Shown: one piece after another, positions 17,025 through 43,842 of the stretch
Position numbering within the stretch: position 1 is the stretch's first letter
How the letters are laid out: each line of letters opens with the position of its first letter
Assembly: GCA_043808095.1 (NCBI GenBank)
Contig: JAZDFF010000015.1
Coordinates: 2,015 to 66,014 of the forward strand
Length of the DNA stretch: 64,000 nucleotides
Source: Candidatus Omnitrophota bacterium
GTDB taxonomy: Bacteria > Omnitrophota > Gorgyraeia > JAZDFF01
Reading direction: 5' to 3'
Position numbers and translations under genes: made by a program
The notes under the pieces: generated by a model
Told to the model about the DNA's origin: nothing
Database searches by the model: none
Seen by the model: the letters and a program-made list of their open reading frames with translations, nothing else

Positions 17025-17240
17025 TTGTAAATTCCTTTATCCAACTAATTTTTAGTATCGGATGCATACGGATTTTAGCGCCTGCCTGCCGGCAGGCAGG
17101 GATTCGGGCGGATAAATTCTTATCCGCGACATCCGTAACCATCCGTTTGAATCCGTGATAAAACATTTGAGTTATTAACTGGTCTGATGTATTTTCATAA
17201 GGTTGTTCGGTTAACCCCCAATATGCTTCATACATATTTA
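17025..17240. repeat. ~215-bp leader repeat (copy A): RBS + palindrome cctgcctgccggcaggcagg (17081..17100) + duplicated first ~20 codons of the ATPase gene (MYEAYWGLTEQPYENTSDQ)
   Basis: Near-identical to 19958..20172. The fragment ATG sits 2 nt after the Wzc stop codon. Confidence 0.7.
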
Positions 17241-19141: not shown

Positions 19142-19957
19142 TTAGGCCTCTAAATCTGCAGCTGCCTCTTCAATAATAGGAGAATCGATTAGCGCCAGCT
19201 TCCTGCCAAATCCAGTAAGTAAAGCTAAATCACAGATATTGTTTATCCTGCGAGGTATTCCGCCTGATTTTTCATATATTGTATTAAGCGCTGAATCATT
19301 AAATAAAGGGGCGTGTCTTCCGGTAATCAATATACGGTGTAATATGTATTTGACTGTATCTTCGCGATTCAACTTATCTAAATAACAACGGATAGCGATC
19401 CTCTGGGCTAAGGGCTTATTGGCCTCAACAATCTCTTTTAATTCCGGTTGACCCAAAAGTAAAAGGGTAAGCAAAAACTTATCCTCCAGCTGGAAATTTA
19501 AAAGTAATCTCAGCGCTTCCCATACTTGTTCGTCACGGATAATATGCGCTTCATCAACAATAACTACCGTCCGCCTGCCGTCCTTGGCGTTATTGACCAA
19601 TATATTATTTAATGTATCTACTACTACGTTCGCCAGGACTTCAGTCTTTTTTGTAGGCAGGTCCTTTGCCCCAAGACCAGCAGCTATAGCCATCAGAAGT
19701 TCTATATAATCAAATTGGGGGTTAGCCACAAATGCAATCCTGTATACGTCCCTGCCCAGTTCTTTTAATAAGGTCCTGCCTAAAAGGGTCTTGCCGCAAC
19801 CAAAAACCCCGGTCATAATCGCCGACCCCTTTTGTTCTCTTACCGCATAAAGTAAACGCGATAGCCCTTCTTCATGTTGCTGCGAATGATACAAGAACCT
19901 GGGATCAGGCGTATTCTCAAAAGGTTTTTCTGTTAATCCCCAATACGATTCGTACAT
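19142..19957 (-). CDS. ExeA/GspA-like AAA ATPase (EPS-locus secretion ATPase family)
   Basis: 271 aa. MYESYWGLTEKPF... Walker A GVFGCGKT and Walker B VVIVDEAH. Confidence 0.75.
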   Translation of the reverse strand: MYESYWGLTEKPFENTPDPRFLYHSQQHEEGLSRLLYAVREQKGSAIMTGVFGCGKTLLGRTLLKELGRDVYRIAFVANPQFDYIELLMAIAAGLGAKDLPTKKTEVLANVVVDTLNNILVNNAKDGRRTVVIVDEAHIIRDEQVWEALRLLLNFQLEDKFLLTLLLLGQPELKEIVEANKPLAQRIAIRCYLDKLNREDTVKYILHRILITGRHAPLFNDSALNTIYEKSGGIPRRINNICDLALLTGFGRKLALIDSPIIEEAAADLEA

Positions 19958-21138: not shown

Positions 21139-22206
21139 TTAGTGTCTATTCGTGCCTCTATCTTCTATATCCCAAACGCTTTTTCTACGCTTTCCGATAA
21201 CCATTAAGACCGAGATAACCGCAAAAACTAGGCCCGCCTGGATAAGAAGCATTATTGCATCAAATCCAGGATCTTGCCAGAGCACAACTGCGCTTAAACC
21301 AAGTATCAAGGAAATGGAATAGATAAATAATACCGCTCCCCTAAAGTGCAACCCGAGCTCTACCAGGCGATGATGGAAGTGATCAAGCGCCGCGTACTCA
21401 AACCATTCTATAATATTCTTGATTTTTTTGGTATATACCCGCGCAATGGTAGTAAAAGTCATATCAAAAATCGGTACCCCCAAAATCAAAATGGGGACAG
21501 TTATGGCCACTACATTATCCTGGGCCCAGTTGCCCATTATAGCTATGCAGGCAAGGATAAAACCTAAGAAAGTACTGCCGCTATTTCCTAAGAAAATCTT
21601 CGCCGGGTGAAAATTATACCTTAATAACCCGAGACAACCGCCAGCTAAGGCAAGACAGATGGCCGCTAATTGTAATTGGCTGGTCAGATAACAAACGACA
21701 AAAAAACAAATACTGGTAATAACGGCAAGGCCGGTAGCCAAACCATCCAGACCATCCAGGCAATTCAAGGCATTGGTAATACCAATAATCCATATAATAG
21801 TCAAGATCCATTCACCCGATAGCCCCAGCCAGTTATTAGGGAGAAAAGTCAATACAATACCGAATTTAATAACCAAAATAGAGGCCAATAGCTGAATCAA
21901 TAACCTTAAAGTAGCTGATAACCCCTTTTTGTCGTCGATTAAACCAGTTATGAGAATAATAAGGCTACCAAGGAGTAACCCTTTTGCCGGTAACCTGAAA
22001 TCTCTGTCTTTAATCAATAATATCACACTTAAAAAGAAGGCAATCGATATAACCAAGCCACCTAAAATAGGCATGGGTCGCTTATGGATGCTGCGTTCCT
22101 TGGTTGGATAATCTAAGAAATTAAACCAGCCGGCAACCCTTATGAAGAGAGGGGTGGCAAGATACGATACTAAAAATGAAAAAAGAAATATTTTAAAAGA
22201 TGTCAT
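21139..22206 (-). CDS. Polyprenyl-phosphate N-acetylhexosamine-1-phosphate transferase (WecA/MraY family, priming enzyme)
   Basis: 355 aa, ~10 TM. Has GLIDDKKGL (DDxxG) and NALNCLDGLDGLA motifs. Confidence 0.8.
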   Translation of the reverse strand: MTSFKIFLFSFLVSYLATPLFIRVAGWFNFLDYPTKERSIHKRPMPILGGLVISIAFFLSVILLIKDRDFRLPAKGLLLGSLIILITGLIDDKKGLSATLRLLIQLLASILVIKFGIVLTFLPNNWLGLSGEWILTIIWIIGITNALNCLDGLDGLATGLAVITSICFFVVCYLTSQLQLAAICLALAGGCLGLLRYNFHPAKIFLGNSGSTFLGFILACIAIMGNWAQDNVVAITVPILILGVPIFDMTFTTIARVYTKKIKNIIEWFEYAALDHFHHRLVELGLHFRGAVLFIYSISLILGLSAVVLWQDPGFDAIMLLIQAGLVFAVISVLMVIGKRRKSVWDIEDRGTNRH

Positions 22207-22817
22207 ATTTGTAACATAAATCTCAAACTCTTGAAGCCTTCGGCATACTTGACTCTTCCCTGAAACCCTCTAAAATTTGCGCAAGAGGTGGCACTCTCTA
22301 TGATGCTTAAGCCAGGCACGCGCGTTTTATCTACTTGTGAATGATGGATCTTCAAAAGCTCCAATTTTTCTTCTAAAACATCCCCAATATCTGCAAATAC
22401 GTCTGGCTGAAAATCTTGTGTTGTCGGGACCTCATAAAATAAAACATTTTTAATATAGCGCGATGCTGAGATTGCTGCCTGGGCAAGTGCACGATGGTCC
22501 TGGTGGATATCATTAGAATAATTAAATAAAATCAAGTCTGGGTTTGTTTGGTTCATCACACCTTCTATTATTTGGATTAGGTCTCTACTTACAGTAATTT
22601 TGGTGTCTGGGAAACCTCCCCAGAATAGTCTCTTGACCTTTAAAAATCCGCAAGAAGCCTCCTGCTCTTTTCTTCTAAATTGTGCATCTGAACCCACTTC
22701 TCCTTCAGTCAAAACCAGCATATAAATGCTACAATTTTTCTTTGCATATTTTAGTAAAGTACCGCCGCAGCCGAATTCTATATCATCCGGATGCGCACCA
22801 ATGGCTAATATGTTCAT
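22203..22817 (-). CDS. PIG-L/LmbE-family N-acetylglucosaminyl deacetylase
   Basis: 204 aa. AIGAHPDDIEFGCGGTL (HPDDxE zinc-binding motif). Confidence 0.75.
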   Translation of the reverse strand: MNILAIGAHPDDIEFGCGGTLLKYAKKNCSIYMLVLTEGEVGSDAQFRRKEQEASCGFLKVKRLFWGGFPDTKITVSRDLIQIIEGVMNQTNPDLILFNYSNDIHQDHRALAQAAISASRYIKNVLFYEVPTTQDFQPDVFADIGDVLEEKLELLKIHHSQVDKTRVPGLSIIESATSCANFRGFQGRVKYAEGFKSLRFMLQI

Positions 22818-22981: not shown

Positions 22982-24022
22982 TTAACATATCTTTTTAATT
23001 ACCTCAATAACTCTTTTTTGTTCATTGGGTTTAAGGGACGGATATATCGGTATAGAGACTGCCGAATTCCAGGCAGCCTCTGCTCGGGGGTAGCTGCGTT
23101 GGCCTAAATATTTATGCAAAAGTTTGTATACAGGTCTTTCGCAGATAACATTGTTTCTTTTTAGAAAATTTAATGCCTTCCTCAGGTCTTTTTTAATCCT
23201 AATTACATAACGGAAATAGATATGTCCTTTCGTAGATTTCGGTGAATCGAAATCACAATTAGAAAACGCCTTATTATACCTTCTAGCTAAATATCTTCTT
23301 TGGTTAATAAATTTATCTAATTTTTTAAGTTGGCTCATACCGAGTGCCGCCTGAATATCAGTCATCTTATAGTTGAACCTTAGCTTGAATGATTTTTTCT
23401 TATCGTAATCCCTGAGATCTCGGACTTTGTCTAATAAGCTTAAGTTGTTAGAAAATACCATCCCGCCTTCTCCTGTTGTAAGTAATTTGGTGGTATAGAA
23501 TGATGTCATGCTTAGATCCCCAAAGGTCCCAACCTTTCTACCAGAATATTCAGCTCCAATTGCCTGGGCACAATCTTCAATTACAGGTATTCCTAACTTT
23601 CTAAAAGGCAATATATCTACGGGTGAACCAAACATATGGCTGACGATTATCGCTTTAGTTTTTCTAGTCAGCTTCTTCTTGGTATCAATAAATGAAATAT
23701 TAAAATCGTCGGCGTCAATATCTGCAAATTTAGGTCTGGAACCTACATACAAAATAGCGTTTAAGACAGCGCTACATTGATAGGTAGACAAAATCACCTC
23801 ATCTTTTTCCTTTATACCAAGTGCGAGAAAGCAAAGATGTAAAGCGGATGTTCCAGAGTTAACTACCAACGCACCTTTAACATCCAGATATTTAGCAAAA
23901 CGCTTCTCAAACTCAAATACAAATTTCCCTTGACTTATATGTCCAGATTCTAAAACTGCTAAAACGCAATCAATATCATCTTTAGAAAGCGTAGGCCTAG
24001 AATGAGGAATCATTCTCTGCAT
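22982..24022 (-). CDS. DegT/DnrJ/EryC1/StrS-family sugar aminotransferase (PLP)
   Basis: 346 aa. Family-typical layout with SFYTTKLLTTGEGG (active-site Lys region). Confidence 0.8.
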   Translation of the reverse strand: MQRMIPHSRPTLSKDDIDCVLAVLESGHISQGKFVFEFEKRFAKYLDVKGALVVNSGTSALHLCFLALGIKEKDEVILSTYQCSAVLNAILYVGSRPKFADIDADDFNISFIDTKKKLTRKTKAIIVSHMFGSPVDILPFRKLGIPVIEDCAQAIGAEYSGRKVGTFGDLSMTSFYTTKLLTTGEGGMVFSNNLSLLDKVRDLRDYDKKKSFKLRFNYKMTDIQAALGMSQLKKLDKFINQRRYLARRYNKAFSNCDFDSPKSTKGHIYFRYVIRIKKDLRKALNFLKRNNVICERPVYKLLHKYLGQRSYPRAEAAWNSAVSIPIYPSLKPNEQKRVIEVIKKIC

Positions 24023-24708
24023 CTGGATTTCCTTAAAATAGAAAGGCTTTCTTTACCCTGATTAAACAACAGATCTACAATTGACAGGTTTTCTATGAAT
24101 GGCTGTTTTTTCTCATAAAGTTGTTTATATCTGGGGTGTCGGAAATCCTGGAAAATAAGCTCTATGCCTTGTTTCTTAAATTTCTCTGTCTCAAGATAGA
24201 GGCGGCCTCCTTCGCCAGAAAGATAGGTATCGGCACCCAAGTTCTTACAGATATTTATTAGATGTTCAGTTGCCAAGCCTGGTTGTTTTAGGTCGCAAGA
24301 TCTTACCAATTTAGTCTTTATCCCCAATATTTTGACAATACTTTTGATTATGCTGATATTTAATTCAGATAAATAAGTCCATCTTTCGCTATAGACCGTT
24401 TTAAAAAAATCAATGTAATCGCCAAAGTATGGCGCCTTATTATAATTTATAATAAGTGCATTGAGGTGCTGCCTTGGCCAATCAATATCGTTGTTTATTG
24501 TGACTGCTCTTATCTGTTGGGGAAATTTGTGCATTACGGGAACGCTGACCCATTGCCAATCCTTAGATGTCTTTATTTTATTGCGATTCTGCCATTCGTT
24601 TTTTTTGAATTGAACGTCATCCAGAAATACAAACATGTCCGACCTATCTATCTTGTCAAAATATCCTAACCAAGGAAGGTATTGGGGTTGATGAATAGAA
24701 ATAATCAT
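24010..24708 (-). CDS. WbqC-like family protein
   Basis: 232 aa. IHQPQYLPWLGYFDKI...FLDDVQF is characteristic of the WbqC-like family found in O-antigen clusters. Confidence 0.65.
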   Translation of the reverse strand: MIISIHQPQYLPWLGYFDKIDRSDMFVFLDDVQFKKNEWQNRNKIKTSKDWQWVSVPVMHKFPQQIRAVTINNDIDWPRQHLNALIINYNKAPYFGDYIDFFKTVYSERWTYLSELNISIIKSIVKILGIKTKLVRSCDLKQPGLATEHLINICKNLGADTYLSGEGGRLYLETEKFKKQGIELIFQDFRHPRYKQLYEKKQPFIENLSIVDLLFNQGKESLSILRKSRCRE

Positions 24709-26246
24709 TTTCTCTTAACAAAAATGGGGTTGGAAACTATCTCCGAGGGACTGTCTATCAATAATCTATAAAAACTTTTAATTCTATCTCTTGGCACATC
24801 ATCCCGAATCTGGAATTCAAATTTTTCCTCTCCAGTCTCGAATATCTTGAATAGCTGTCCGTTTTTAATCAACCTTATTTTAACCGGTGATCGATCAATA
24901 TTCGGTCGATAACCTTTTATATTGATATTAATATCGTTAAAAAGTTGATCGCTATTTATCAGGGAATTTTCCGCCGAATCTCTTGCCTTAACATCAACAT
25001 GTAATTCTCCGCCCATATATGCGATTTGGTTAGTTTTGTTATTTTTTATAGAGAATTCTGTTAATATAACTTCGTTTTTGTTGCCCCAGATGGCATATAG
25101 CCTGCCTTTTTTTAGCGCATCAAGAACTTCATTTTTATTAAATTCTTTTAGAAATAAAACATTATGGATATAATCTATTTCCCCTTCACCTTGGAAACCT
25201 GTCTCGCCGATTCCCCAAACGGCCCTATCTCGCTGGCCCAGACAATATTCATTTAGCAATTCATCCCATTCAGCACCCGCCTTATGCATTGTTCTAGAAT
25301 CTCCGTAAATAACGCTAAATCCCGTATAGCCAGAACTATCAAAAAGGTCTTCTTTATGGGAAAGCGTAGAAAAATGTATGCCTGCGATATTATTTTGAAC
25401 ACAAGATTCAACAGACAACCAGAAACTTAAGGCGTTATGAAGATTAGCATAATCGATTAGCCTTTGATAAGGCAAAATTTTCTTATCACCGTGGTAAGGA
25501 TCAAACTCAGCAGGAACCGTAAAAGGAAAATTATTTATTAAAGACATTGTGCTGATAATAATTACAATTATACTTGTACCCCTTGCCAGAAAATTTATAC
25601 AGGAAAAATCTCTTCCTAGGTCATCCACATATTCAAATTTCTTCTTGCGAAAAAGATAAATTCCTAAAAAAAGAGTAAATATCGGCCACAGCTGCACCAA
25701 ACTCTTAAAACCATACTTTAGTTTTTTATACTTATTGGATATTGTGGGTAAATTCCGGTAATCACTTGCATTATCTAGGCCTATAACGATTAATTGTTTA
25801 CTCCAATCATGTACTGTCAACTCTCCTTTTAAAAAAGAACATTTCCACCAATAGAAAGGCGCTACCTCGCATCCGGGTATAATCAGAACCTGAGGATTTT
25901 CTTTATTTGCCTTACCTATTAAATCTAAATATCTCTGTGCACCAAATTTAAGGATACTATCTTTCTCTCGGACTTTCCGTATAAGCATGCGAAACGGCCA
26001 AATACCAAATTCACCACGGGCTAAAGCCTGGTCTGTCAAAATTAAGACACTCACATTAGATTCTTTGGCATATTTAGCTAATTGGTCAATAGAACACGTA
26101 CCTGCGCTGACATTGGAGTTAACCCCAATAACTGCCTTTACCCTGATAAATTCTTCTGCAGAGGCATCATTGATTAGACAAAATAGAAAACAAAATAAAT
26201 AAGATAAAATTATGAGGCTATCTTTCTTGGGAAAGTAAGTCATCAT
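24705..26246 (-). CDS. Hypothetical exported/membrane-anchored protein
   Basis: 513 aa with an N-terminal signal-like segment and one internal hydrophobic segment. No confident family; possibly a metal-dependent (PHP-like) hydrolase. Confidence 0.35.
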   Translation of the reverse strand: MMTYFPKKDSLIILSYLFCFLFCLINDASAEEFIRVKAVIGVNSNVSAGTCSIDQLAKYAKESNVSVLILTDQALARGEFGIWPFRMLIRKVREKDSILKFGAQRYLDLIGKANKENPQVLIIPGCEVAPFYWWKCSFLKGELTVHDWSKQLIVIGLDNASDYRNLPTISNKYKKLKYGFKSLVQLWPIFTLFLGIYLFRKKKFEYVDDLGRDFSCINFLARGTSIIVIIISTMSLINNFPFTVPAEFDPYHGDKKILPYQRLIDYANLHNALSFWLSVESCVQNNIAGIHFSTLSHKEDLFDSSGYTGFSVIYGDSRTMHKAGAEWDELLNEYCLGQRDRAVWGIGETGFQGEGEIDYIHNVLFLKEFNKNEVLDALKKGRLYAIWGNKNEVILTEFSIKNNKTNQIAYMGGELHVDVKARDSAENSLINSDQLFNDININIKGYRPNIDRSPVKIRLIKNGQLFKIFETGEEKFEFQIRDDVPRDRIKSFYRLLIDSPSEIVSNPIFVKRK

Positions 26247-27390
26247 ACAGGTTTTTAAATTTACTTAACATTAAATCGGATGAAAAGTTTTCAAGAACCC
26301 ATTTTTTTGCTTCCTTTGCCATATCATTATATAATTCTCTATCTTTTAATAACCCGATTATCGCTTCGGCTAAGGCATAACTATCTTTTGGCGGCACTAA
26401 AATTCCTGTAATTTTATCTAAAACGACTTCTGGAATACCTCCTACCTTAGTAGCTACAACCGGCTTTCCTAAAATTCCTGCCTCAAGTAATACTAAGCCA
26501 AAACCCTCATTTAAAGATGGTAATGCAATTAAATCAGAAATAGAGATTATTTCTATGACATCCTCTCTTTCACCTAAAAAGTTAACTACATTAAAAATAT
26601 TTAATTTTCTGGCTGCATTCTCTAACTCTTTTTTTAACGACCCATCTCCCACAATTAATGCTTTAGCTTGCGGGAATTGTCTTATTATTTCTTTCATTGC
26701 TTCCCAAAAATAAATATGGCCTTTTACCGGCTCCAGTCGCCCTACCATAGTGACTAAATAATCTTCTTCCAAAAAATGTAGTTCTTCCCTCTTAGCTGAT
26801 TTATCTACTTTAATATTAAGGTTTTTATCCAATTCTATGCCATTATGGATGCTGATAAACTTATTATCTTTTGCTATACCGAATTTTATATGTTCGTTCT
26901 TGCCGATTTCTGTAAGGGTGACTATTTTATCTGTTATGTAAGCTGTCAACTTCTCCAAAAAGATAAAGAGATCCGTTTTTAATCTGCCGAAGTATCCGTA
27001 GAAAATATGTCCGTGCGGCATATGAACGACTATATGAACGCCGGCCAATCTTGCTGCCCATCGGCCAAGGATGCCTGCCTTTGAGGTGTGGGTATGCACA
27101 ATTTGAGGTCTTTCTTTTTTTAAAACAGAATATAATCTAAAAAAACTAATCAAATCCAAAAAAGGATTAGGATTGCGTCTAAGTTGATTTATAAAAATAA
27201 TCTGGATGCCTGTCTGACTTGAAAATCTATCCAAATCTTCTTGGGGATCTTTAGTAAGACCGCTGATAATCTTTACAAGGTAATCTTGCCTATTCAAGAA
27301 TTTAGCCAGCTCTAAAACAATCTTAGAAGATCCGCCTTTATCCAGGCGGGTGATAATCTGAATTATATTTATTTTTTCCATTTGACACAA
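26218..27390 (-). CDS. Glycosyltransferase family 4 (GT-B)
   Basis: 390 aa with the EGFGLVLLEAGILGKPVVAT motif (E-x7-E region). Confidence 0.75.
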   Translation of the reverse strand: MCQMEKINIIQIITRLDKGGSSKIVLELAKFLNRQDYLVKIISGLTKDPQEDLDRFSSQTGIQIIFINQLRRNPNPFLDLISFFRLYSVLKKERPQIVHTHTSKAGILGRWAARLAGVHIVVHMPHGHIFYGYFGRLKTDLFIFLEKLTAYITDKIVTLTEIGKNEHIKFGIAKDNKFISIHNGIELDKNLNIKVDKSAKREELHFLEEDYLVTMVGRLEPVKGHIYFWEAMKEIIRQFPQAKALIVGDGSLKKELENAARKLNIFNVVNFLGEREDVIEIISISDLIALPSLNEGFGLVLLEAGILGKPVVATKVGGIPEVVLDKITGILVPPKDSYALAEAIIGLLKDRELYNDMAKEAKKWVLENFSSDLMLSKFKNLYDDLLSQER

Positions 27391-27392
27391 AT

Positions 27393-28568
27393 CTACCTTG
27401 CTATAAAGTGATGCTTAAATAAGAATTCTTCAATGAGCCCTGCTAATGCCTTGTTGCCTTCCGGATTCAGATGTCTATCTATAGTAAAATATAGCCTCTT
27501 ATCTCTGAACTTTAGAGAGGTAAATTCCTCCAGAAGATTTATACAGGGTATTCTTTCTGATTCTAATTCTTTAGTTAACCAAAATATTGGTTCATATGTT
27601 CTATCTTTATAGTCAATAAAATTTTTCTTGATGGCTGTATCCACATGATATGTGTCCGGAATGAGAATAACAATGAAGTCTGAGTTATTGCTTTTGGCTT
27701 CTGTCTGAAATTTTTTGAGGATTTTTACCGTTATAAAAACATCTTCTTTAGTAGTTTTATGCATTCGTTGCTCAACTATAAATGCCCCACCCATTTTCCT
27801 CAAAAATGGTATAAATTGAGGGAAATTACTTAATCGTTCAAACAATAAATTCGATAATGCTGAGTGTGTCTGGATAATAAATCTTATATCATTAAGAAAA
27901 CCCCTTCGTCTTCCAAAATGTTCAAATTCCTCTTCAGTAAGAAGTGAGAATTCCCTTGGCTGAAAGTACAGTTCATCATTCTTCAATATGAAGTACGGTC
28001 CGTTTATATTATTTATATCTTCATCTGTGAGGTCAGGATATATATCATCTCCAATATAAAATAACAGAATGATTATATCAGGGGCATATTTAATGCCTTC
28101 GGTTTTATACATAAGGTATTCTTTAAGCAAATCGTAACCCGATACACTCAAATTAACCACTTCTAAAATTTTATCATGCTTGGATTGCAGTATAGATGAA
28201 TACATCTTGAGGTTGTCTACGCCAAATCCCCAACCAAAAGAATCCCCTAAAAATAGTATTCTCTTTTTGTTATTAGTTCTTTGGTAGGGAATTTCTTTAC
28301 CGCGAAAACCTTTGGAATTTGTCTGCCAGCGCATCTTGAATTCTCCCTGCCATTTCTGGAGTATTAGATCTAAGTTTGGTTTCGGCCGAAGTTTAAACGT
28401 CTTATCCTGATTAAAGAACCTCGCGAGATCATCATTATAGTAACCCCTCTTTACCCCTTCCCAGAGAGGGGATAACTTAAATATTCTAACAACCTCCTCC
28501 GCAAGAAGTATTGCAAATATAATACCCAAAAATGACAAGGAAAGATTAATGATTATTTTTTTCATCAT
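27393..28568 (-). CDS. SGNH/GDSL hydrolase-family protein (possible polysaccharide O-acyl esterase/acyltransferase, AlgX/AlgJ-like)
   Basis: 391 aa, N-terminal TM/signal. Block I ILFLGDSFGWG and block V DRHLNPEG. Confidence 0.6.
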   Translation of the reverse strand: MMKKIIINLSLSFLGIIFAILLAEEVVRIFKLSPLWEGVKRGYYNDDLARFFNQDKTFKLRPKPNLDLILQKWQGEFKMRWQTNSKGFRGKEIPYQRTNNKKRILFLGDSFGWGFGVDNLKMYSSILQSKHDKILEVVNLSVSGYDLLKEYLMYKTEGIKYAPDIIILLFYIGDDIYPDLTDEDINNINGPYFILKNDELYFQPREFSLLTEEEFEHFGRRRGFLNDIRFIIQTHSALSNLLFERLSNFPQFIPFLRKMGGAFIVEQRMHKTTKEDVFITVKILKKFQTEAKSNNSDFIVILIPDTYHVDTAIKKNFIDYKDRTYEPIFWLTKELESERIPCINLLEEFTSLKFRDKRLYFTIDRHLNPEGNKALAGLIEEFLFKHHFIAR

Positions 28569-28785: not shown

Positions 28786-30333
28786 TTAAAAATAACTAAC
28801 TTTTATTAAAACGAAGTTGTTATCGGAATATACGACATTTCCAAAGCGTTTAAATAAATCTATTTTAGTTCGCAAAATTTGACTTCTCTTTATATTTAAT
28901 AGCAAAAACCCAACTTTATATTTTCTAATTATATTTAATTGAGTATTGTAATAGGCATTATCTTTAAAGAAACGTTCCAAGTCTTCTATTCGTTCCTCGG
29001 CATCATTAACACCATAAAGCGTGGGTGGAGCTGCGACTACCTTGCCTCCAAAGACAGGTATTAATGCGCTAGTTTCTATATCTGATAATATTACGTCGTA
29101 TTGTTTAGTATACTTGGAAAGGAATAAATATGTTCCATAATCATTTTGACCTCCCAAAAAACAACGAATAAGTACTGGTAAAACTCTAATAACACAAATC
29201 AAAATTAAGATAATCATACCTCGATATGCTAATAATGAGACAGAATTACCTAACGTCAATTCAGATTCTATCCTGACAAACCAAACTGCAATAACTATAT
29301 CTAACATTAGCACAATGTAAAAAATTACACGTCCATAACTCCAATTTCGTGATATAGCACCATAAAAATAAATAAGGCATAGTCCGAAAAACATCAACGC
29401 TAAGGGATCCCGCCAATTTAACCTAATTCTAAGCATGAGCAACGGAAGACCGATGATAACAGGGAATATGCGCGTAAATGCACCGCTATAGAATGTATAA
29501 CTGTGCTCGAGAAATGTAGACGGCTGCGATAAGATGACATTCTGCCAAAAAGGATAACATGGCCAAGCAGCGGCGAACAAGAAAGACAGGAAAAAGACAC
29601 CCATAAGTAATGCGTAATTACGCCATCGACGAATTCCGCCTAAACTTATAGATAGCATTATCAAACATATACACATTACAACTGCAGTTGGTGGATGCGT
29701 CAGCAATACTAAAACTATCGCTATAAAAAGAGCAAAAAAACTTAATTGGCTTTTTCCTTTCAGAATCTGAATATAAATAGAAAATGATAAAAACATTAGA
29801 GCCGCTGCAAATGTAGATGGATAAGGTAAAACATAGCCTAAAGTCCATAGATGGAGAAATCCGCTCCAGGTCCATGGATTACGGCCCCATAAAATTAGCA
29901 TAAAAAGTAATGAATAGAATGAAATATTTTCACTATTTTTACCATCAAATAATAAAAAAATAAACAATCTAAACCATATTAAAAAAAGTATCAGATTAAT
30001 TATACCTACAATAGAAAGTGTCGCTATAGGAGTTAAGTTCGTAAGTCGCGAAATCCAAGCAACACCCAAAGCATATGGTGAGTAGAATGTATGTGGTGCA
30101 TCTAACAATACTTGAGGATGCTGAGGAAAAATGGGATGCGTAGCAAGCTCACGGATAACAGCACTGTGGATCCAGAAATCACCCCCCCACTGTCCATTTA
30201 CTGTATGGAAAACCATGAGCACTAAAACAAAAATAGATAAAATTAAATAACGGTATCTAGACAAATCACGCAAATTGTGTATTCTGTCAGTATAATTTTT
30301 GAACATCTCGGAATAAATTAAGTTTTCCTTCAT
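28786..30333 (-). CDS. Polytopic integral membrane protein (GT-C-like / polymerase-like), hypothetical
   Basis: 515 aa, >10 predicted TM helices. No soluble catalytic motif recognised. Confidence 0.45.
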   Translation of the reverse strand: MKENLIYSEMFKNYTDRIHNLRDLSRYRYLILSIFVLVLMVFHTVNGQWGGDFWIHSAVIRELATHPIFPQHPQVLLDAPHTFYSPYALGVAWISRLTNLTPIATLSIVGIINLILFLIWFRLFIFLLFDGKNSENISFYSLLFMLILWGRNPWTWSGFLHLWTLGYVLPYPSTFAAALMFLSFSIYIQILKGKSQLSFFALFIAIVLVLLTHPPTAVVMCICLIMLSISLGGIRRWRNYALLMGVFFLSFLFAAAWPCYPFWQNVILSQPSTFLEHSYTFYSGAFTRIFPVIIGLPLLMLRIRLNWRDPLALMFFGLCLIYFYGAISRNWSYGRVIFYIVLMLDIVIAVWFVRIESELTLGNSVSLLAYRGMIILILICVIRVLPVLIRCFLGGQNDYGTYLFLSKYTKQYDVILSDIETSALIPVFGGKVVAAPPTLYGVNDAEERIEDLERFFKDNAYYNTQLNIIRKYKVGFLLLNIKRSQILRTKIDLFKRFGNVVYSDNNFVLIKVSYF

Positions 30334-30356: not shown

Positions 30357-31511
30357 TTAAAACCTATATAGTTCGGTGCACTTCGAACACACAGGAAAAA
30401 CCTTTATTTTTTTAACAATTTTACGAAAATTTCTGTATGTGGCATTATTCCAGATCTGTCGAAAACTTTGTTCTTTCACATTACCACAGGAAAAATCTAA
30501 TTCCTCGCAAGGACGAACTGTTCCATCGGGAAATATATATGCTGTCATCCAAGGACTTAGACAGCGATTTTTATAACTGGAAGGGGTAAATTCAAAATCA
30601 GAATAATACCTCTTAATTTCATCATCACTAAAATTCGGATAGAAAAATACCCCAATAGGAAATTTTGATTTATCTATCCTTTTTATCTCTTCAATAAAAT
30701 ATTCTATGTCTATATTGGGCAGTTGGCCCCGCACAAATCCTGACCAGTCAGAAGATTTTATGTTAAAGTATTCCTTAAATATTTGGTTGTGCCTAGCTAA
30801 AATATCATTGTTAATAAAACAAAGGTGATGAAATGTTATGGAATCTGCTCCAATAGATGCTGCTATCTCTATAATCTCGTTAAGAAGCCTAAAATTATCT
30901 TCCGAGATAGTACAAGCTATATTTATGCGAGGCGATTTTATTGACCGCCTTTTCTTTTCTACATTAATCTGCCTCAAGCCCTCAATTGCCATGTCGAATG
31001 AACCGCTTACCTGGGTTATTTCATCATGGATATGCCGAGGTCCCTCTAAGGAAAAGATAATTTCATCAAGTCCCGAATTAATAACTTCAAGGGCTTTATC
31101 TTTTAGGATTGTGCCGTTGGTCACGACATTGCAACGTAGCCATTTTCCCTTGATATAACTAACCAAATCCGGCCAATGCCTATACAAAAGCGGCTCTCCT
31201 CCGAATAAAGTTATATTTGGCTTAAAGGCAGAAACCTCGGCTATAAGCTTCTCTAGTTCTGCCATACTTAATTCTTCTCTAAGAAATTCGGGGGATTCCT
31301 GCTTCATAGACCCGCACTTACCCCAATAGCCGCACATCCTACATCTTAGGTTACAATTATAAGTTAAAAATAAAGATAAGGTCTCGGGGTAGTTACTATA
31401 GCCATTAAAAAAATGATAACTGAGCTGAGAAAAAATTCTTTTTTTAAAAACGCTTATGGCATAAGCTGGCTCTTTCAATGATTTTTTTATAGTTCTTTTG
31501 GAAATAATCAT
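30357..31511 (-). CDS. Radical SAM protein with C-terminal SPASM/twitch Cys cluster
   Basis: 384 aa. CNLRCRMCGY (CxxxCxxC) near the N-terminus and C-terminal Cys motifs (CEELDFSCGN...CSKC). Confidence 0.75.
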   Translation of the reverse strand: MIISKRTIKKSLKEPAYAISVFKKRIFSQLSYHFFNGYSNYPETLSLFLTYNCNLRCRMCGYWGKCGSMKQESPEFLREELSMAELEKLIAEVSAFKPNITLFGGEPLLYRHWPDLVSYIKGKWLRCNVVTNGTILKDKALEVINSGLDEIIFSLEGPRHIHDEITQVSGSFDMAIEGLRQINVEKKRRSIKSPRINIACTISEDNFRLLNEIIEIAASIGADSITFHHLCFINNDILARHNQIFKEYFNIKSSDWSGFVRGQLPNIDIEYFIEEIKRIDKSKFPIGVFFYPNFSDDEIKRYYSDFEFTPSSYKNRCLSPWMTAYIFPDGTVRPCEELDFSCGNVKEQSFRQIWNNATYRNFRKIVKKIKVFPVCSKCTELYRF

Positions 31512-32692
31512 AGGGTTCTAAAGATACCAATGATCCTGTCTAGGGTGTCTAGACTTACTAAGGGATGAGCAGGCAAAAGCAAAAGTCTATGCGCCAAATA
31601 AGTGGCGTTAGGGAAAGGATCGGGAACAAGGCTATATCCTAAATTATGAATATGGTGTATGGGCTCTCGATATAAGGTAGTCGCTTCGATACCTACCCGT
31701 AGCAATTTATTTAGTATATTATCCCTCAAGTTACTGTCTCTGAATAACACTGGAAATTGATTATAAACTGGCAAACTGCCCGGAGGAAGTTGCGGCAGAA
31801 TTATCGCATCAATATCTTTTAGTACCTCATATAATCTTGAGCCGATATTATGTCGCTTTTCAACGATTAAATTCAGTCTCTTGAGCAAAGATAACCCCAC
31901 AGCTGCCTGAAAATCGGTGTAGCGCTTAACTTCAAAACTACTGTGAAGTGCCGTATCTTTAAACTTAGCTATTAGAGGATAGCATAAAGTATAAACCAAA
32001 GGCCTAACTGCTAAAGCCAGGGCTATAGTTTTAATTGGCATAAAAGCAATGTCTAAATTATTGGGCCTCCTTACCACTCCTGCTTCTTGCTCTATTGCTC
32101 GAGCAATATCCTGTGCATCCGTAGTTATGCAGCCTCCCGAAAACGTGCTCATATTCTTGCCGCGATTAAAACTAAAAATACTCACATCTCCTATGGAACC
32201 CACCTTTTTGCCAGAGAGCATCGCACCTAAGGCTGAGGCGCTATCTTCAAATACGAATATTCCTTTTTTTCTACCAATCTCCGTAATCTTATCCATCTGG
32301 CAGGGAATGCCGAACATATGCACAGGTACGATACAGAGAGTTTTATCAGTAATAACTTCGTATAATTTATCTATATCCAGATTAAACGTTGAACCAGATA
32401 TGTCACAAAGAATGGGCTTCAGGCCTGCCTGCCAAATAGGTAGAACCAAATGAGGAGCTGTATAAGCCGGCAGAATCACCTCTTCCTTTTCAGAGAGGCG
32501 CCTTAATGCTTTAAGTACGATATAGAAAGCAGCGGTTCCTGAACTAAAGGCAAAACAGTATTTTGTCCCAAAAATATTACAGATTTCCTGTTCAAACTGG
32601 GCAATATAGGATTTCTTTAAAAAAAATGAGCCAAACCCTATTTGTATATCCGTCCAACTAATCGGTGTTCCGGCCGAAGGTACTCTCATCAT
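31508..32692 (-). CDS. DegT/DnrJ/EryC1-family sugar aminotransferase (PLP)
   Basis: 394 aa. Layout and SFNRGKNMSTFSGG motif. Overlaps the rSAM/SPASM gene by 4 nt, suggesting translational coupling. Confidence 0.75.
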   Translation of the reverse strand: MMRVPSAGTPISWTDIQIGFGSFFLKKSYIAQFEQEICNIFGTKYCFAFSSGTAAFYIVLKALRRLSEKEEVILPAYTAPHLVLPIWQAGLKPILCDISGSTFNLDIDKLYEVITDKTLCIVPVHMFGIPCQMDKITEIGRKKGIFVFEDSASALGAMLSGKKVGSIGDVSIFSFNRGKNMSTFSGGCITTDAQDIARAIEQEAGVVRRPNNLDIAFMPIKTIALALAVRPLVYTLCYPLIAKFKDTALHSSFEVKRYTDFQAAVGLSLLKRLNLIVEKRHNIGSRLYEVLKDIDAIILPQLPPGSLPVYNQFPVLFRDSNLRDNILNKLLRVGIEATTLYREPIHHIHNLGYSLVPDPFPNATYLAHRLLLLPAHPLVSLDTLDRIIGIFRTL

Positions 32693-33363: not shown

Positions 33364-34215
33364 TTATTTCTTTAATACAACAATAAATTCATCAAACCAT
33401 TCCTGGGGAATGATCCTGGAGAACATCTTATTATCTAATATATTTAATATACTAATTATTTTATTTATAAATAAATGGATAAGCTTATTGGTTGTTCTTT
33501 GTGCAATCGGATCTGTAAGCCAGTAAAATATTCGAGAACTAAAACCTGAAAATCTTTCAATTCTTACAGAGCTGAATCCTGCGTCATGACATTTTTCTTC
33601 CATCTCTCTAAAACCAAAGGTGCGGATATCAATTAATTTTTCTGATTCAGACTTTGAAAGTCTCTTATATAAGAGAAATACGGACCAGGTTATCCATCTT
33701 AAGATAGCTATAATCTTATTAGCTTTTAAACTTGGCTCAATAATTAGACAAAAGCCACCTATTTTTAATGACCTATAGCAATCACAAATACATTTTTCAT
33801 AGTTTGGCAGATGATGTAAAATGCCATGAACAATTATAAAGCCAAAGCTATTATCTTTATAGGGTAAATTTTCGGCATCACCTTTCACAAACCTCATATT
33901 TATTCCCAATCGTATGGCATTTTCTCTGCATTTTTCCAACATCCCTAAAGATATGTCTATTCCATACGGTTCTTTTATATCTCTATTTAAAACTAAATTA
34001 AGAACGACGCTGCCGGTACCACAACCAACTGATAAGAATCTCTGATTGTTTTGGTATTTATTTGTAAATAGAGAGCCGATCTTTGATAACTCCGATTTAA
34101 ATACATCTGTACTAAAGGTAACCCTGCGCAACCTATCATACTTACTGCACATTTCATCGAAGATGACTATATTTGCTTTCTTAACTTTATCAGCATCAAA
34201 TTTTTTCATAAACAT
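33364..34215 (-). CDS. Class I SAM-dependent methyltransferase
   Basis: 283 aa with motif I LSVGCGTGSV. Confidence 0.65.
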   Translation of the reverse strand: MFMKKFDADKVKKANIVIFDEMCSKYDRLRRVTFSTDVFKSELSKIGSLFTNKYQNNQRFLSVGCGTGSVVLNLVLNRDIKEPYGIDISLGMLEKCRENAIRLGINMRFVKGDAENLPYKDNSFGFIIVHGILHHLPNYEKCICDCYRSLKIGGFCLIIEPSLKANKIIAILRWITWSVFLLYKRLSKSESEKLIDIRTFGFREMEEKCHDAGFSSVRIERFSGFSSRIFYWLTDPIAQRTTNKLIHLFINKIISILNILDNKMFSRIIPQEWFDEFIVVLKK

Positions 34216-35354
34216 AGTAATTGTCTAAATTGATCAGCAACCCTTTGCCATGAAAAGTATCTTTCTACCCTATCCCTTCCATTTTTACCTAATCGCTGGG
34301 CATAATCGGTATCTGTAAAAAGCCCTATTATTGCATTGGCTATTTCATCGCAGCTATTAGGATTAACCAGAATTCCAGTTACGCCTTCTATAACCGCATC
34401 TCCCACTCCACCTGACCTACCTCCTATAACGGGTTTACCGCAGGCACTTGCTTCAATAAAAGAAATTCCAAAACCTTCGACTATCTCACTGCCACTAGTC
34501 TCCCTATTAGGCATAACATAAATATCGCATGCATTATAGAATGATTTAACCTCCCGATGGTCTATTTCGCCAATGAAGATTACATAATCCTCGAGATTAT
34601 ATTGTCTAACCAAACAATTTAGACTATCCTTCAAAGGGCCGTCACCAACAATAAGATAGACGACGTTAGGAATCTCAGATTTAACTTTGGCAAGACTTCT
34701 GATAACCATGTCCTGGCCCTTTCTTTCTACTAATCTTGCCACTGTCAATAAAACTTTCTTGCCCATAAGATTATACCTTTCCTTGATCTTGGTAGAATCT
34801 GATTGAGGATTGAAGGTTTCTAAATCTACGCCCGGGGGTATCTTAACAATATTATTTTTTTGATTATTCAAATTCAAATACTCTCGATAAGTATATTCAC
34901 TATCCACTATTATTAATTCGGCATTCCTAACAATCAATTTTAAAATTTTGCTAATCAATAACGAATACTTATATTTTTTTGATTCACCTCCCCAGCCATA
35001 AATAAGGTATCTCAGGCCAAATAATTTCCTAAATACCAGGCCAGAAAAACCGGAAGAGACAGGATGTGCACATATAAGAAGACTTATATTCTCTTTCTTT
35101 ATTAGCCGAAGAGCGTAAAATAAGAAAAAGATGGTCTTTCTAATCTGGGATAAGCGGCTACCTCCTGAGAGAAAGGGCAATCTGTATACCTTGTTTTTTT
35201 GTTCTCTATCAAAATCCCAGGCCCCCTTAACTTGTGGCGCCAGTATGATTATATGTTCTTCTGGTAAATTTCTGCAAATATTATAAAAAAATGTGGATAT
35301 GCCACTAACTATGGGAGGATAGTCACCTGTAATCAATAATATCTTTTTATCCAT
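34206..35354 (-). CDS. Glycosyltransferase family 4
   Basis: 382 aa with EGFGISFIEASACGKPVIG. Confidence 0.75.
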   Translation of the reverse strand: MDKKILLITGDYPPIVSGISTFFYNICRNLPEEHIIILAPQVKGAWDFDREQKNKVYRLPFLSGGSRLSQIRKTIFFLFYALRLIKKENISLLICAHPVSSGFSGLVFRKLFGLRYLIYGWGGESKKYKYSLLISKILKLIVRNAELIIVDSEYTYREYLNLNNQKNNIVKIPPGVDLETFNPQSDSTKIKERYNLMGKKVLLTVARLVERKGQDMVIRSLAKVKSEIPNVVYLIVGDGPLKDSLNCLVRQYNLEDYVIFIGEIDHREVKSFYNACDIYVMPNRETSGSEIVEGFGISFIEASACGKPVIGGRSGGVGDAVIEGVTGILVNPNSCDEIANAIIGLFTDTDYAQRLGKNGRDRVERYFSWQRVADQFRQLLCL

Positions 35355-40444: not shown

Positions 40445-41509
40445 TTATAAGAAATTCTTATGCAACGCTTCCTTTTGTCCAAGAAAATGGATTAGTTCAT
40501 TATATTTGTTTAATCTACAAGGTGGGCATTTATGTAAATTAATCCGATTTATAATCTTTTCTCTTTTTTGACTATTCCATATCTGACTAAATGATTTTTC
40601 TTTCAGACTTCCAAAACTAAATCGAGGATCCCCCTTTAACTGACAGCACAAATATACTAGACAATCCGCGCCCACCGCGGCTATTAGATTGTGAGCCACG
40701 CAGCTACTATAGTTTCGTTCGAAAGCGCTCATCTCATCAAATCGATGCAACATAGGAATAACAGAAAAATTTTTATCTGAAAGCTTAAGTGATTTGAGTA
40801 CCAATCCTTCTATTTTAGGCATCATCCTCTCTAAGATTTTCTTGCCCGGTATATATACCGGCCTAATCTGAATATAATCTACCCCTACATCTTTGGCTAG
40901 TTTAGTTGCCTGATAGATTTGTGAATAATTCAAAGGGTGGACTAAAAAAGCTATGCCTATGGTAGGAGATTTCTTATCTTTTCTTAAACGGACTAGATAT
41001 TTTAAATTTTCGATGATTTTATCAAAATTATCTTGACTAAGATCTTTTGGTCTATGTAAAGAGGCATGACTCCTTCTATCTGTTGCATCTAAACTTATTC
41101 TTACAAAAGTACAATTTTTTATAATCTCTCTGCAGCATCCCTCTGTCATAAGTCCACCATTAGTTACTAGGCCAACTTCCATTTTCAATTCCTTTGCATA
41201 GCGTATAGCCCCTAAAGTTGCAGGATTCATTAAGGGCTCTCCACCTCCTGTAAAGATTATTGACTTTACATGCATCTGCCCTAACTCCCTAATTAGGTTA
41301 AACATAATTTTCCGAGGCATAAGTTTAGGTTTTTCCTTTTTAAAATTAGCATACATACACCAAATACAATTATGGTTACAGAGATTACTCGGGTCGAGCT
41401 CACAGGTTACAGGATAAATTTTTTTCCCCTTAGCTAATTTATTTAGAATAACTCGATGACTCAATATCTTTGCAGGATTAAATTGGTTAATATTCGTATT
41501 AGGTTTCAT
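40445..41509 (-). CDS. Radical SAM / SPASM-domain protein
   Basis: 354 aa. CNHNCIWCMY (CxxxCxxC) and C-terminal Cys-rich region (CLVYLCCQ...CPPCR). Confidence 0.75.
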   Translation of the reverse strand: MKPNTNINQFNPAKILSHRVILNKLAKGKKIYPVTCELDPSNLCNHNCIWCMYANFKKEKPKLMPRKIMFNLIRELGQMHVKSIIFTGGGEPLMNPATLGAIRYAKELKMEVGLVTNGGLMTEGCCREIIKNCTFVRISLDATDRRSHASLHRPKDLSQDNFDKIIENLKYLVRLRKDKKSPTIGIAFLVHPLNYSQIYQATKLAKDVGVDYIQIRPVYIPGKKILERMMPKIEGLVLKSLKLSDKNFSVIPMLHRFDEMSAFERNYSSCVAHNLIAAVGADCLVYLCCQLKGDPRFSFGSLKEKSFSQIWNSQKREKIINRINLHKCPPCRLNKYNELIHFLGQKEALHKNFL

Positions 41510-43014: not shown

Positions 43015-43842
43015 TCATTTATATCTCTTAAACAGTCCGATACTAAATCCGATTGCATAACTGAGATTTGCCAAAAAGCCGATTAATTGAAAAGTCAACA
43101 GTAGTCGTATCAGCCTAACAATAAACCGAATAATTCTAAATGGCAAACTTCTTCTTGGTACAAAGTCTGTAACGTCCGGGGGAGGAACCTCAAAGATCAA
43201 ATTAGGGAAGTATCTACTATCGTGGGCTGCCCCTACCCCATGTTGAAACCTAGCCTTTAATAACTCACCTAAATTTCTATACATAGGATGGAAAACCCAG
43301 GTGTTGGGAACTACAACTATCCTGTGTCCAGACTGCCGCACCCTATATCGAAACTCTGGGTCATCTCCTCTAATCAAATTTCCGTTTTCTCCGCCTAATT
43401 CTAAATAAAGTTTCTTTAAAATAGCCATCCCTGCATGAGTGACCATATCCGTTTCAGTGATCTTATTTACTATCGGGAATTGAGAACGATATAGTATCTT
43501 AACACAATGCTTTTGAAATTCATTAGAATCAGGCGGTATTAATTGGGAGGCGCCGGTTATGCCTATAGTTTTATCTTCAATCAATGGCTTAATTAAGTTC
43601 TCGACTACCTTCTCTGTCCCCAGGCGTACATCATCATCAAAAAAGACTAAAATTTCGCCCTTTGCTAGTTTGGCTCCCACATTATGCGCCTTGCTACATG
43701 GACTTATGCCCTTTACCACATGAACCTCAAAGTCCTGAAAGCTCTGTTTTGAGAGGTCTTCTAATAACTTCGGAACATTTCCCTGGCGATACCCATCTAA
43801 TGAAGGTATTATAACGGAAACTAAAGGATTACGGACTGACAA
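43015..43842 (-). CDS. Glycosyltransferase family 2
   Basis: 275 aa. VSVIIPSLDG...FFDDD (DxD) in a GT-A fold. Confidence 0.75.
   Translation of the reverse strand: MSVRNPLVSVIIPSLDGYRQGNVPKLLEDLSKQSFQDFEVHVVKGISPCSKAHNVGAKLAKGEILVFFDDDVRLGTEKVVENLIKPLIEDKTIGITGASQLIPPDSNEFQKHCVKILYRSQFPIVNKITETDMVTHAGMAILKKLYLELGGENGNLIRGDDPEFRYRVRQSGHRIVVVPNTWVFHPMYRNLGELLKARFQHGVGAAHDSRYFPNLIFEVPPPDVTDFVPRRSLPFRIIRFIVRLIRLLLTFQLIGFLANLSYAIGFSIGLFKRYK

Follow-up and report, generated by a model that had tools for sequence, protein, structure and literature searches.

To our knowledge, almost all known sugar chemistry by radical S-adenosylmethionine (SAM) enzymes belongs to antibiotic pathways (butirosin, blasticidin, desosamine and apramycin). 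In butirosin biosynthesis the product of the radical SAM enzyme BtrN is aminated by BtrS, an enzyme of the DegT family, and BlsE/BlsH form a second such pair in blasticidin S biosynthesis, where the keto product of BlsE is passed to an enzyme dependent on pyridoxal 5'-phosphate (PLP). The reaction of BtrN itself is the oxidation of 2-deoxy-scyllo-inosamine to amino-dideoxy-scyllo-inosose (PMC13598754). Here we analyse a similar gene pair in a stretch of 64,000 nucleotides, referred to below as the window, from a Candidatus Omnitrophota bacterium (GCA_043808095.1, contig JAZDFF010000015.1, positions 2,015 to 66,014 of the forward strand). It consists of a radical SAM gene, rSAM, whose protein has an identical database entry, a "radical SAM protein" of a Candidatus Omnitrophota bacterium, and, upstream of it, a gene for a DegT-family aminotransferase, DegTa (Table 1). 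The original prediction, made from the window alone, was that a BtrN-like rSAM could feed a keto-sugar to the DegT enzyme. In related loci rSAM and DegTa are separable in both directions, and we tentatively favour a role for rSAM as a facultative, sugar-directed oxidative tailoring enzyme rather than as the obligatory ketone supplier of DegTa.

The genes of the region are all on the minus strand. The DegTa stop codon TGA overlaps the rSAM start codon ATG by 4 nt (31508–31511; "tcat" on the plus strand, ATGA on the coding strand), and a second ATGA overlap, at 32689–32692, joins the stop of the gene for a 221-aa methyltransferase, MT221, to the start of DegTa. Both the overlap and the translational coupling that had been predicted for the pair were borne out, with the qualification that the coupled unit is one of three genes, MT221-DegTa-rSAM, rather than two. 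On the downstream side 24 bp separate rSAM from the next gene. Among 66 loci drawn from other genomes and metagenomes in the two scans described below, in which both orthologues lie on one strand, 14 possess the identical 4-nt overlap, 3 other overlaps and 5 gaps of no more than 30 nt, the starts of the open reading frames (ORFs) in these other loci being assigned by a simple rule. The DegTa-rSAM arrangement is far beyond chance.

The tight rSAM orthologue family (384–396 aa, 46–67% identity) spans 129 GTDB species, the hosts being Omnitrophota, Scalindua and Brocadiaceae, Thermodesulfovibrionia and other Nitrospirota, KSB1, Latescibacterota, Marinimicrobia and Thermodesulfobacteriota. We collected 82 distinct rSAM loci and searched their ORFs with every protein of the window; the flanks extend over 6–10 kb, and genes elsewhere in those genomes lie outside this view. 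A conserved cassette of about ten genes, (GT9 x2)-GT4b-MT221-DegTa-rSAM-GT4a-PHP-like-WbqC-PIG-L-DegTb-WecA (GT, glycosyltransferase; MT, methyltransferase), is common to at least eight phyla, with synteny in Omnitrophota, anammox Planctomycetes, Nitrospirota, KSB1, Latescibacterota and others. DegTa is found upstream of rSAM in 45 of the 82 loci, directly in 30 and at a distance of 0.4–3.7 kb in 15. The latter are mostly from Scalindua, where DegTa lies 2.5–3 kb upstream, with genes for a polysaccharide deacetylase and a carbamoyltransferase occupying the interval. The insert (L003, 4198..9164, and other Scalindua loci) specifies Polysacc_deac_1 and NodU/CmcH-type proteins. GT9 (heptosyltransferase-family) genes just upstream in the Scalindua loci suggest a link to a lipopolysaccharide-core-like structure.

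In 34 of the 82 loci there is no DegTa orthologue upstream of rSAM on the same strand. Nineteen loci belong to a separate Marinimicrobia clade in a neighbour-joining tree, in which the rSAM orthologue (47–50% identity), next to a regulator gene, heads an rSAM-Wza-Wzz-Wzy operon; no DegT match was found among the ORFs scanned within about 9 kb of it. The remaining 18 loci show other contexts or are cut off upstream, and include deltaproteobacterial loci in which the orthologue stands beside other radical SAM genes.

Viewed from the DegTa side the picture is similar. A metagenome scan with a DegTa alignment returned 80 loci, of which 66 extend far enough downstream for a judgement; rSAM follows DegTa in 43 and is lacking in 23. 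Eleven of the 66 represent the cassette without rSAM, eight of them unambiguously (L130, L134, L139, L140, L153, L155, L163 and L164), and these keep GT4b-MT221-DegTa-GT4a-PHP-WbqC-PIGL-DegTb-WecA. DegTa abuts or overlaps GT4a, with nothing between, in L130, L134, L139, L153 and L163, where the cassette genes in general are closely packed, and rSAM behaves as a single-gene presence/absence difference between otherwise identical cassettes. Another 12 of the 66 show other contexts, mostly GT4-MT-(kinase-like)-GT9-GT9-MT221-DegTa followed by the housekeeping gene cinA, and no rSAM or oxidoreductase gene was found in those GT9 operons. No gene replaces rSAM in the loci lacking it: a glycosyltransferase gene or cinA lies downstream of DegTa. 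MT221 precedes DegTa in at least 51 of 64 loci. The co-occurrence analysis proposed with the original prediction has a divided outcome, in that the pair is adjacent across many phyla but each gene also occurs without the other. In three loci on metagenome contigs (L094, L095 and L096) rSAM, downstream of a shortened DegTa ORF, appears to be broken in two (pieces scoring 93 and 145 bits); pseudogenes or assembly frameshifts may be the cause.

An exhaustive phmmer search of 1.84 billion cluster representatives extended the family to 736 clusters (50% identity) at E ≤ 1e-30. Five of the best 150 members carry an N-terminal extension of about 430–480 aa, and GT2 glycosyltransferase models match four of these (P0288, P0308, P0332 and P0343, the fifth being P0326); a further multidomain member, P0294, has 1324 aa and four radical SAM domains. 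P0288 adjoins a PqqD-containing radical SAM gene and a B12-binding one (L167). Three wider members at 32–37% identity were examined. Two are found in loci with Wza, Wzz, Wzy, flippase, glycosyltransferase and B12-binding radical SAM genes, the third, a GT2 fusion, among other radical SAM genes, and no DegT gene was found near any of the three. The genetic context concerns glycans in almost all of the roughly 150 loci. Based upon the polysaccharide loci and the GT2 fusions the rSAM family appears to be glycan-directed, and because wider members occur without DegT the latter is no universal partner. In the literature we found neither the cassette described nor any member of the family characterised; the family is uncurated.

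The rSAM protein possesses the PF04055 [Radical_SAM; 1.2e-19, 71.5 bits against a cutoff of 29.5] and PF13186 [SPASM; 6.1e-16, 58.9 bits] motifs. The hallmarks of the radical SAM superfamily are all present, that is, the CX3CX2C cluster motif (C53, C57 and C60; 98–99% conserved), the conserved SAM-binding GGEP (G104-G105-E106-P107) and a partial TIM barrel. Its C-terminal cysteines are C317, C335 and C375xxC378, the protein ending six residues past the CxxC. Only seven cysteines are conserved (96–99%) among 130 wider-family representatives, the three of the radical SAM cluster and these four (96–98%). Alignment of the isolated C-terminus gave BtrN as the best match, C317 corresponding to BtrN C169 and C335 to C188, while the CxxC falls, by spacing only, where BtrN C232xxC235 would. 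A full seven-Cys SPASM domain with two auxiliary clusters was considered and rejected, as only four C-terminal cysteines are conserved. The "SPASM" region is thus a BtrN-type twitch domain (a truncated SPASM), its four cysteines predicted to ligate one auxiliary cluster fully; the earlier assignment of the pair to the rSAM/SPASM and DegT families was correct except in this respect.

An AlphaFold2 (AF2) model of rSAM (mean confidence, pLDDT, 90.9) places two N-terminal helices of about 40 residues ahead of the barrel. They are amphipathic and conserved, and the catalytic core begins at about residue 42. Neither Pfam nor the AF2 model revealed a RiPP recognition element (RRE; RiPP, ribosomally synthesised and post-translationally modified peptide) or PqqD domain, and no precursor peptide ORF was found near rSAM, nor intergenic room for one. 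C127 is the only other frequent cysteine, kept in 51% of the 130 representatives; judged by secondary-structure topology only, its place in the model, where a barrel strand begins, is probably off the active site. No conserved non-ligand cysteine which could serve as hydrogen donor was found in the alignment of the 130. At residue 166 (approximately 31014..31016) the wider family has an Arg conserved at 95% (HDxIR), and the window protein has Thr ("HD.IT"), as do P0002, P0007 and P0016, the relatives nearest to it; the change may mark a substrate difference in this subclade.

Because identities to the reference enzymes are only 12–21%, closeness was judged by profile and fold scores. The rSAM sequence matched, among proteins in the PDB, SkfB [1e-14], CteB [6e-10], BlsE [3e-7] and BtrN [1e-5], the last over residues 314–382 only, that is, the twitch domain. 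With the family profile the order was SkfB [2e-18], BlsE [3e-15], CteB [8e-15], BtrN [5e-9], anSME [1e-8] and DesII [about 1e-3], and by fold SkfB, BlsE (the best template modelling score, TM 0.64/0.74), SuiB, DesII, MoaA, PqqE, CteB and anSME. BtrN was not found among the 50 best Foldseek matches. The best NCBIfam match was a tungsten-cofactor maturase (109 bits, cutoff 380), followed by AhbD and NirJ, all far under cutoff; the DesII family TIGR04426 was not among the 25 best, which leaves rSAM outside the DesII type. No NCBIfam family exceeded its cutoff for rSAM, DegTa, MT221, WbqC or the PHP-like protein. On these scores no single known enzyme is clearly nearest to rSAM, which falls outside the BtrN clade while having the auxiliary-domain architecture of BtrN. 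The description "BtrN-like" therefore suits the twitch domain, with its C317 and C335 equivalents, but not the protein overall, to which SkfB, BlsE and CteB are at least as close.

Like BtrN, rSAM combines a radical SAM core with a C-terminal four-Cys twitch domain for one putative auxiliary [4Fe-4S] cluster, with no extra conserved Cys in the family, and like BtrN/BtrS it adjoins a DegT-family aminotransferase. The cassette also contains GT4 and PIG-L deacetylase genes, which we take to be the families of BtrM and BtrD of the butirosin pathway. Unlike BtrN, which has about 250 aa, it has 384 aa with the extra N-terminal helix pair, its catalytic core is nearer to SkfB, BlsE and CteB, its pairing with DegT is facultative, and its context is a WecA/Wzx/Wzy/Wza surface-glycan locus with no aminocyclitol pathway and no DOI synthase. 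BlsE (PDB 7VOB) resembles it in fold, in being the second-best profile match and in having a sugar as substrate (cytosylglucuronic acid), but has 17% identity to rSAM and belongs to an antibiotic pathway, where its substrate is a free nucleoside sugar. SkfB and CteB, the sactipeptide thioether synthases, give the best E-values by sequence and by fold, and SkfB is also a twitch-domain enzyme; unlike rSAM both have an N-terminal RRE and act on precursor peptides, whereas rSAM has neither, resides in glycan loci and has GT2-fused relatives.

DegTa contains PF01041 [DegT_DnrJ_EryC1; 9.4e-69, 232.8 bits]. The catalytic Lys (SFxxxK) and the Asp binding the pyridine nitrogen, which mark the fold type I PLP enzymes of the DegT/DnrJ/EryC1/StrS family, are represented by K179 (SFNRGK), which is invariant in the orthologue alignments, and D150, which is conserved in at least 90%. 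The AF2 model (pLDDT 95) resembles, in Foldseek comparisons, GDP-perosamine synthase, WecE, ArnB and WbpE (TM 0.75–0.87), with which DegTa shares the fold and both catalytic residues. It differs from these in an insertion of about 38 aa, and no NCBIfam equivalog reaches cutoff. The insertion, hydrophobic and helical, lies in residues ~205–250 (31940..32080) with the motif ...LALAVRPxxYT...FKYTxLHxDF, is common to DegTa orthologues and absent from DegTb, the second DegT aminotransferase of the cassette, and from solved DegT enzymes. It might be a membrane-facing or partner-binding element.

The region from 17 to 55 kb is one large polysaccharide locus with two Wzz/GNVR proteins, Wza (Poly_export), Wzy_C, two flippases, many GT4 glycosyltransferases and six methyltransferases, and with a second twitch radical SAM protein and a B12-binding one it has three radical enzymes in all. 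The original prediction had remarked that the locus has no short-chain dehydrogenase/reductase (SDR) or other dehydrogenase. This holds: no SDR, Gfo/Idh/MocA or nucleotidyltransferase gene was found within 15–64 kb, where the intergenic gaps are all too small to conceal one, though a Gfo/Idh/MocA gene lies about 20 kb away. Its product, best matched by UDP-GlcNAc 3-dehydrogenase (220 bits, cutoff 450), has no rival in the window as a candidate for a conventional sugar dehydrogenase. That gene is directly upstream of lpxB (10467..11612) and resembles GnnA, which hints at a GlcN3N-type lipid A; no GnnB-like DegT gene is adjacent. No SDR or Gfo enzyme was found in four cassettes, from four other phyla, for which precomputed Pfam annotation exists. 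Nor is a keto-sugar-forming enzyme concealed among the methyltransferases, as had been envisaged, all six being clear class I or FkbM proteins. The argument that the missing dehydrogenase points to rSAM did not stand, as it is not specific: DegTb is likewise without a linked oxidoreductase. The sole case that we saw of a conventional oxidoreductase beside the DegTa-rSAM pair is in a lineage labelled Gemmatimonas-like (L052 and L110), where a weakly Gfo/Idh/MocA-like ORF (38 bits to the window protein) lies divergently just upstream. The 515-aa ORF downstream of rSAM was rejected as a hidden oxidoreductase, being hydrophobic with no domain match, and as a conserved partner, having no homology to a 512-aa protein at the same spot in a Nitrospirota cassette.

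Based upon these comparisons we consider MT221, DegTa and the twitch rSAM to be, possibly, a modular tailoring block within the cassette. The presence of WecA, a BshB-like PIG-L and a BshA-like GT4 suggests that the cassette would build a lipid-linked, GlcN(Ac)-containing glycan. MT221 and DegTa would form an amino-sugar unit, in which DegTa transaminates a keto-sugar made outside the cassette and MT221 probably methylates the product. An outside origin of the keto-sugars is indicated by DegTb, which also has no linked ketone-forming enzyme. In rSAM the CX3CX2C cluster would cleave SAM, the resulting 5'-deoxyadenosyl radical would abstract a hydrogen from a sugar carbon, and the BtrN-type auxiliary [4Fe-4S] cluster would most probably take up an electron, giving a two-electron oxidation to an ulose or related product. 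The target would presumably be a sugar in the growing glycan, which is probably lipid-linked. The sequences themselves show the gene structure, the domains, the Cys pattern, the synteny of the cassette, the separability of the genes and the GT2 fusions; we infer what the substrate is, that the chemistry is oxidative, that it takes place near the membrane, and what MT221 does. rSAM and DegTa would then be co-translated since both serve the same glycan, not through any dependence of DegTa. The insertion of deacetylase and carbamoyltransferase genes between the two in Scalindua argues for a block of independent tailoring genes, and an obligatory supply of ketone is weakened by the cassettes and operons without rSAM, the rSAM clades without DegT, and DegTb.

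Several points weigh against this explanation. Adjacency or coupling with DegTa is the commonest state from either side (45/82 and 43/66), and a direct metabolic hand-off would also produce it. No other keto-sugar-forming enzyme was found in any cassette examined, and the genomes without rSAM could encode it, or an NAD-dependent analogue, beyond the 6–10 kb flanks. The case for an oxidation consists of the Cys pattern and the analogy with BtrN, and a stand-alone ulose in a surface glycan would be unusual.

The strongest competitor, which we regard as possible though rather unlikely, generalises the original prediction: rSAM would be an oxygen-independent ketone supplier, either by C-OH oxidation as in BtrN or by dehydration of a vicinal diol as in BlsE and AprD4, with DegTa aminating the product, MT221 N-methylating the amine, and lineages lacking rSAM using an unlinked NAD-dependent enzyme. 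The chain of ATGA overlaps through all three genes, with the DegTa-rSAM overlap recurring in 14 of 66 loci, and the neighbourhood kept in at least eight phyla are as expected of such a pathway, as is the lack of an SDR, GFO or dehydratase gene in any cassette inspected. The twitch domain aligns with the auxiliary-cluster ligands of BtrN and there is no conserved extra Cys; the sugar-acting BlsE is the best fold by TM, with DesII also high; the Lys and Asp of DegTa are intact in a canonical NDP-sugar aminotransferase fold; and BtrN/BtrS and BlsE/BlsH are precedents. On the other hand, at least eight otherwise identical cassettes and 12 other loci keep MT221-DegTa with neither rSAM nor a replacement, and 34 of the 82 rSAM loci have no DegTa orthologue upstream on the same strand. 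DegTb makes it evident that ketones reach the cassette from elsewhere, the same window encodes a candidate UDP-GlcNAc 3-dehydrogenase, and BtrN is outside the 50 best fold matches. The analogy with BtrN and the dearth of keto-sugar genes in the cassettes thus lend the original prediction partial support, but an obligatory coupling is disfavoured by the separability of the two genes.

A broader proposal, doubtful in our estimation, is that the rSAM family constitutes an oxygen- and NAD-independent replacement for sugar dehydrogenases or dehydratases of the SDR and Gfo type, acting on NDP- or undecaprenyl-linked sugars and here feeding DegTa. It would do so while the cell-envelope glycan is built, in phyla that are anaerobic and for the most part uncultured, among them Omnitrophota, anammox Planctomycetes, Nitrospirota and Latescibacterota. 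If this is true, radical chemistry would yield amino sugars in the primary biosynthesis of the envelope rather than in antibiotic pathways.

Less probable again is a function of rSAM as a radical sugar epimerase (NeoN, HygY or AviX12 type), a redox-neutral enzyme which would invert a single stereocentre in a sugar of the glycan and require no partner. The known sugar epimerases of this class are twitch radical SAM enzymes, and such a function would explain both the single-gene presence or absence of rSAM and its occurrence without DegT. Known twitch epimerases use a conserved Cys as hydrogen donor, and this is where the comparison falters, as the rSAM family has no conserved non-ligand Cys, C127 being kept in about half of the representatives and probably remote from the active site, although a Tyr or other residue may act as donor. 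The context of NeoN has been described (PMC10991966).

We think it improbable that the pair follows the logic of DesI/DesII, in which DegTa would install an amine that rSAM then removes, by radical deamination or dehydration, to give a deoxy-keto sugar. The gene order, DegT then rSAM, would fit, DesII is among the better folds (2.5e-12, TM up to 0.61), and an optional downstream step would suit the cassettes lacking rSAM. DesII itself is not known to have an auxiliary cluster, whereas the rSAM family conserves four twitch cysteines; the profile match to DesII is poor and TIGR04426 is outside the 25 best NCBIfam matches; a tightly linked MT221 would be pointless were the amine removed; and the rSAM clades with no nearby DegT would have no substrate. 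Finally, a peptide or protein maturase (sactisynthase or anSME-like) merely sitting in a glycan locus is very improbable: SkfB and CteB give the best PDB sequence and fold E-values, and some deltaproteobacterial orthologues stand beside other radical SAM genes and NTP_transf_5, but there is no RRE or PqqD domain ahead of a core that begins near residue 42, too little space between the genes for a precursor peptide, a glycan context in almost all of about 150 loci, GT2 fusions, and low identity (12–21%) to peptide maturases, all of which likewise makes unlikely the peptide-modifying SPASM enzyme named as the alternative in the original prediction.

Sugar-directed twitch radical SAM enzymes are already known; what is new here is their apparent presence in envelope-glycan cassettes of uncultured phyla. 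The carriers of the cassette are many uncultured anaerobic phyla, anammox bacteria included. The reaction of the facultative tailoring enzyme that we favour, once worked out, would establish a new tailoring step in the making of envelope glycans, would explain how amino sugars are made or modified without the usual NAD-dependent enzymes in the locus, and would put a name to several hundred database entries annotated as "radical SAM protein."

Table 1. Coordinates of the DegTa-rSAM pair, the surrounding cassette and related genes in the window
Feature	Position	Strand	Basis
ATGA overlap, DegTa stop/rSAM start	31508..31511	-	Sequence; recurs in 14/66 related loci
rSAM, 384 aa	30357..31511	-	Pfam, family alignments, AF2 model, BtrN alignment
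DegTa, PLP aminotransferase, 394 aa	31508..32692	-	Pfam, PDB matches, orthologue alignments, AF2 model and Foldseek
MT221, class I SAM methyltransferase, 221 aa	32689..33354	-	Pfam; precedes DegTa in at least 51/64 related loci
GT4b glycosyltransferase, upstream end of cassette, conserved	34206..35354	-	Pfam, synteny
515-aa hydrophobic protein, probably polytopic membrane protein	28786..30333	-	No Pfam/NCBIfam match
SGNH/GDSL-like esterase	27393..28568	-	Weak Pfam/NCBIfam matches
GT4a glycosyltransferase, like BshA and stp2, conserved, downstream of rSAM	26218..27390	-	Pfam, NCBIfam
513-aa protein, weak PHP/CehA-McbA metallohydrolase match, conserved cassette member	24705..26246	-	Pfam, NCBIfam
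WbqC-family protein, conserved cassette member	24010..24708	-	Pfam; overlaps DegTb gene
DegTb, second DegT aminotransferase, 346 aa, without the DegTa insertion	22982..24022	-	PseC-like, 262 bits, under cutoff
PIG-L/LmbE-family de-N-acetylase	22203..22817	-	BshB1-like, 98 bits
WecA/MraY-family polyprenyl-phosphate N-acetylhexosamine-1-phosphate transferase (initiating), overlaps PIG-L gene	21139..22206	-	Pfam, NCBIfam
Gfo/Idh/MocA oxidoreductase, adjoins lpxB, outside locus	9288..10232	+	NCBIfam

A PDB sequence search returned nothing for the WbqC-family or the PHP-like protein. The second twitch-like radical SAM protein (40445..41509, minus strand, 354 aa, C-terminus ...CPPC...) adjoins a Polysacc_synt flippase. 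The B12-binding one (43829..45238, minus strand, 469 aa) has BchE, HpnJ and P-methyltransferase-like matches, all under cutoff. The same pairing of a radical SAM protein with a B12-binding one and a flippase is found in wider-family loci, for example L168.

Between 57556 and 63917 lie genes for an NTP_transf_5 protein, an ABC exporter, a full SPASM-type radical SAM protein (61470..62543) and another radical SAM protein (62901..63917, near the end of the window), which together resemble a module of the RiPP or SynChlorMet type bordering on the glycan locus. The equivalent place in L085 is occupied by ScmC, PqqD and NTP_transf_5, and in the deltaproteobacterial loci the rSAM orthologue adjoins homologues of the gene at 61470. 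Duplicated Wzz/GNVR/P-loop modules (17238..19133 and 51789..53726) bracket the polysaccharide locus, as do AAA_22 ATPases (19142..19957, 54858..55670 and 55745..56539) and an AAA_22-HD fusion (15195..17024). Other Omnitrophota cassettes (L001 and L016) likewise have an AAA_22 orthologue after WecA.

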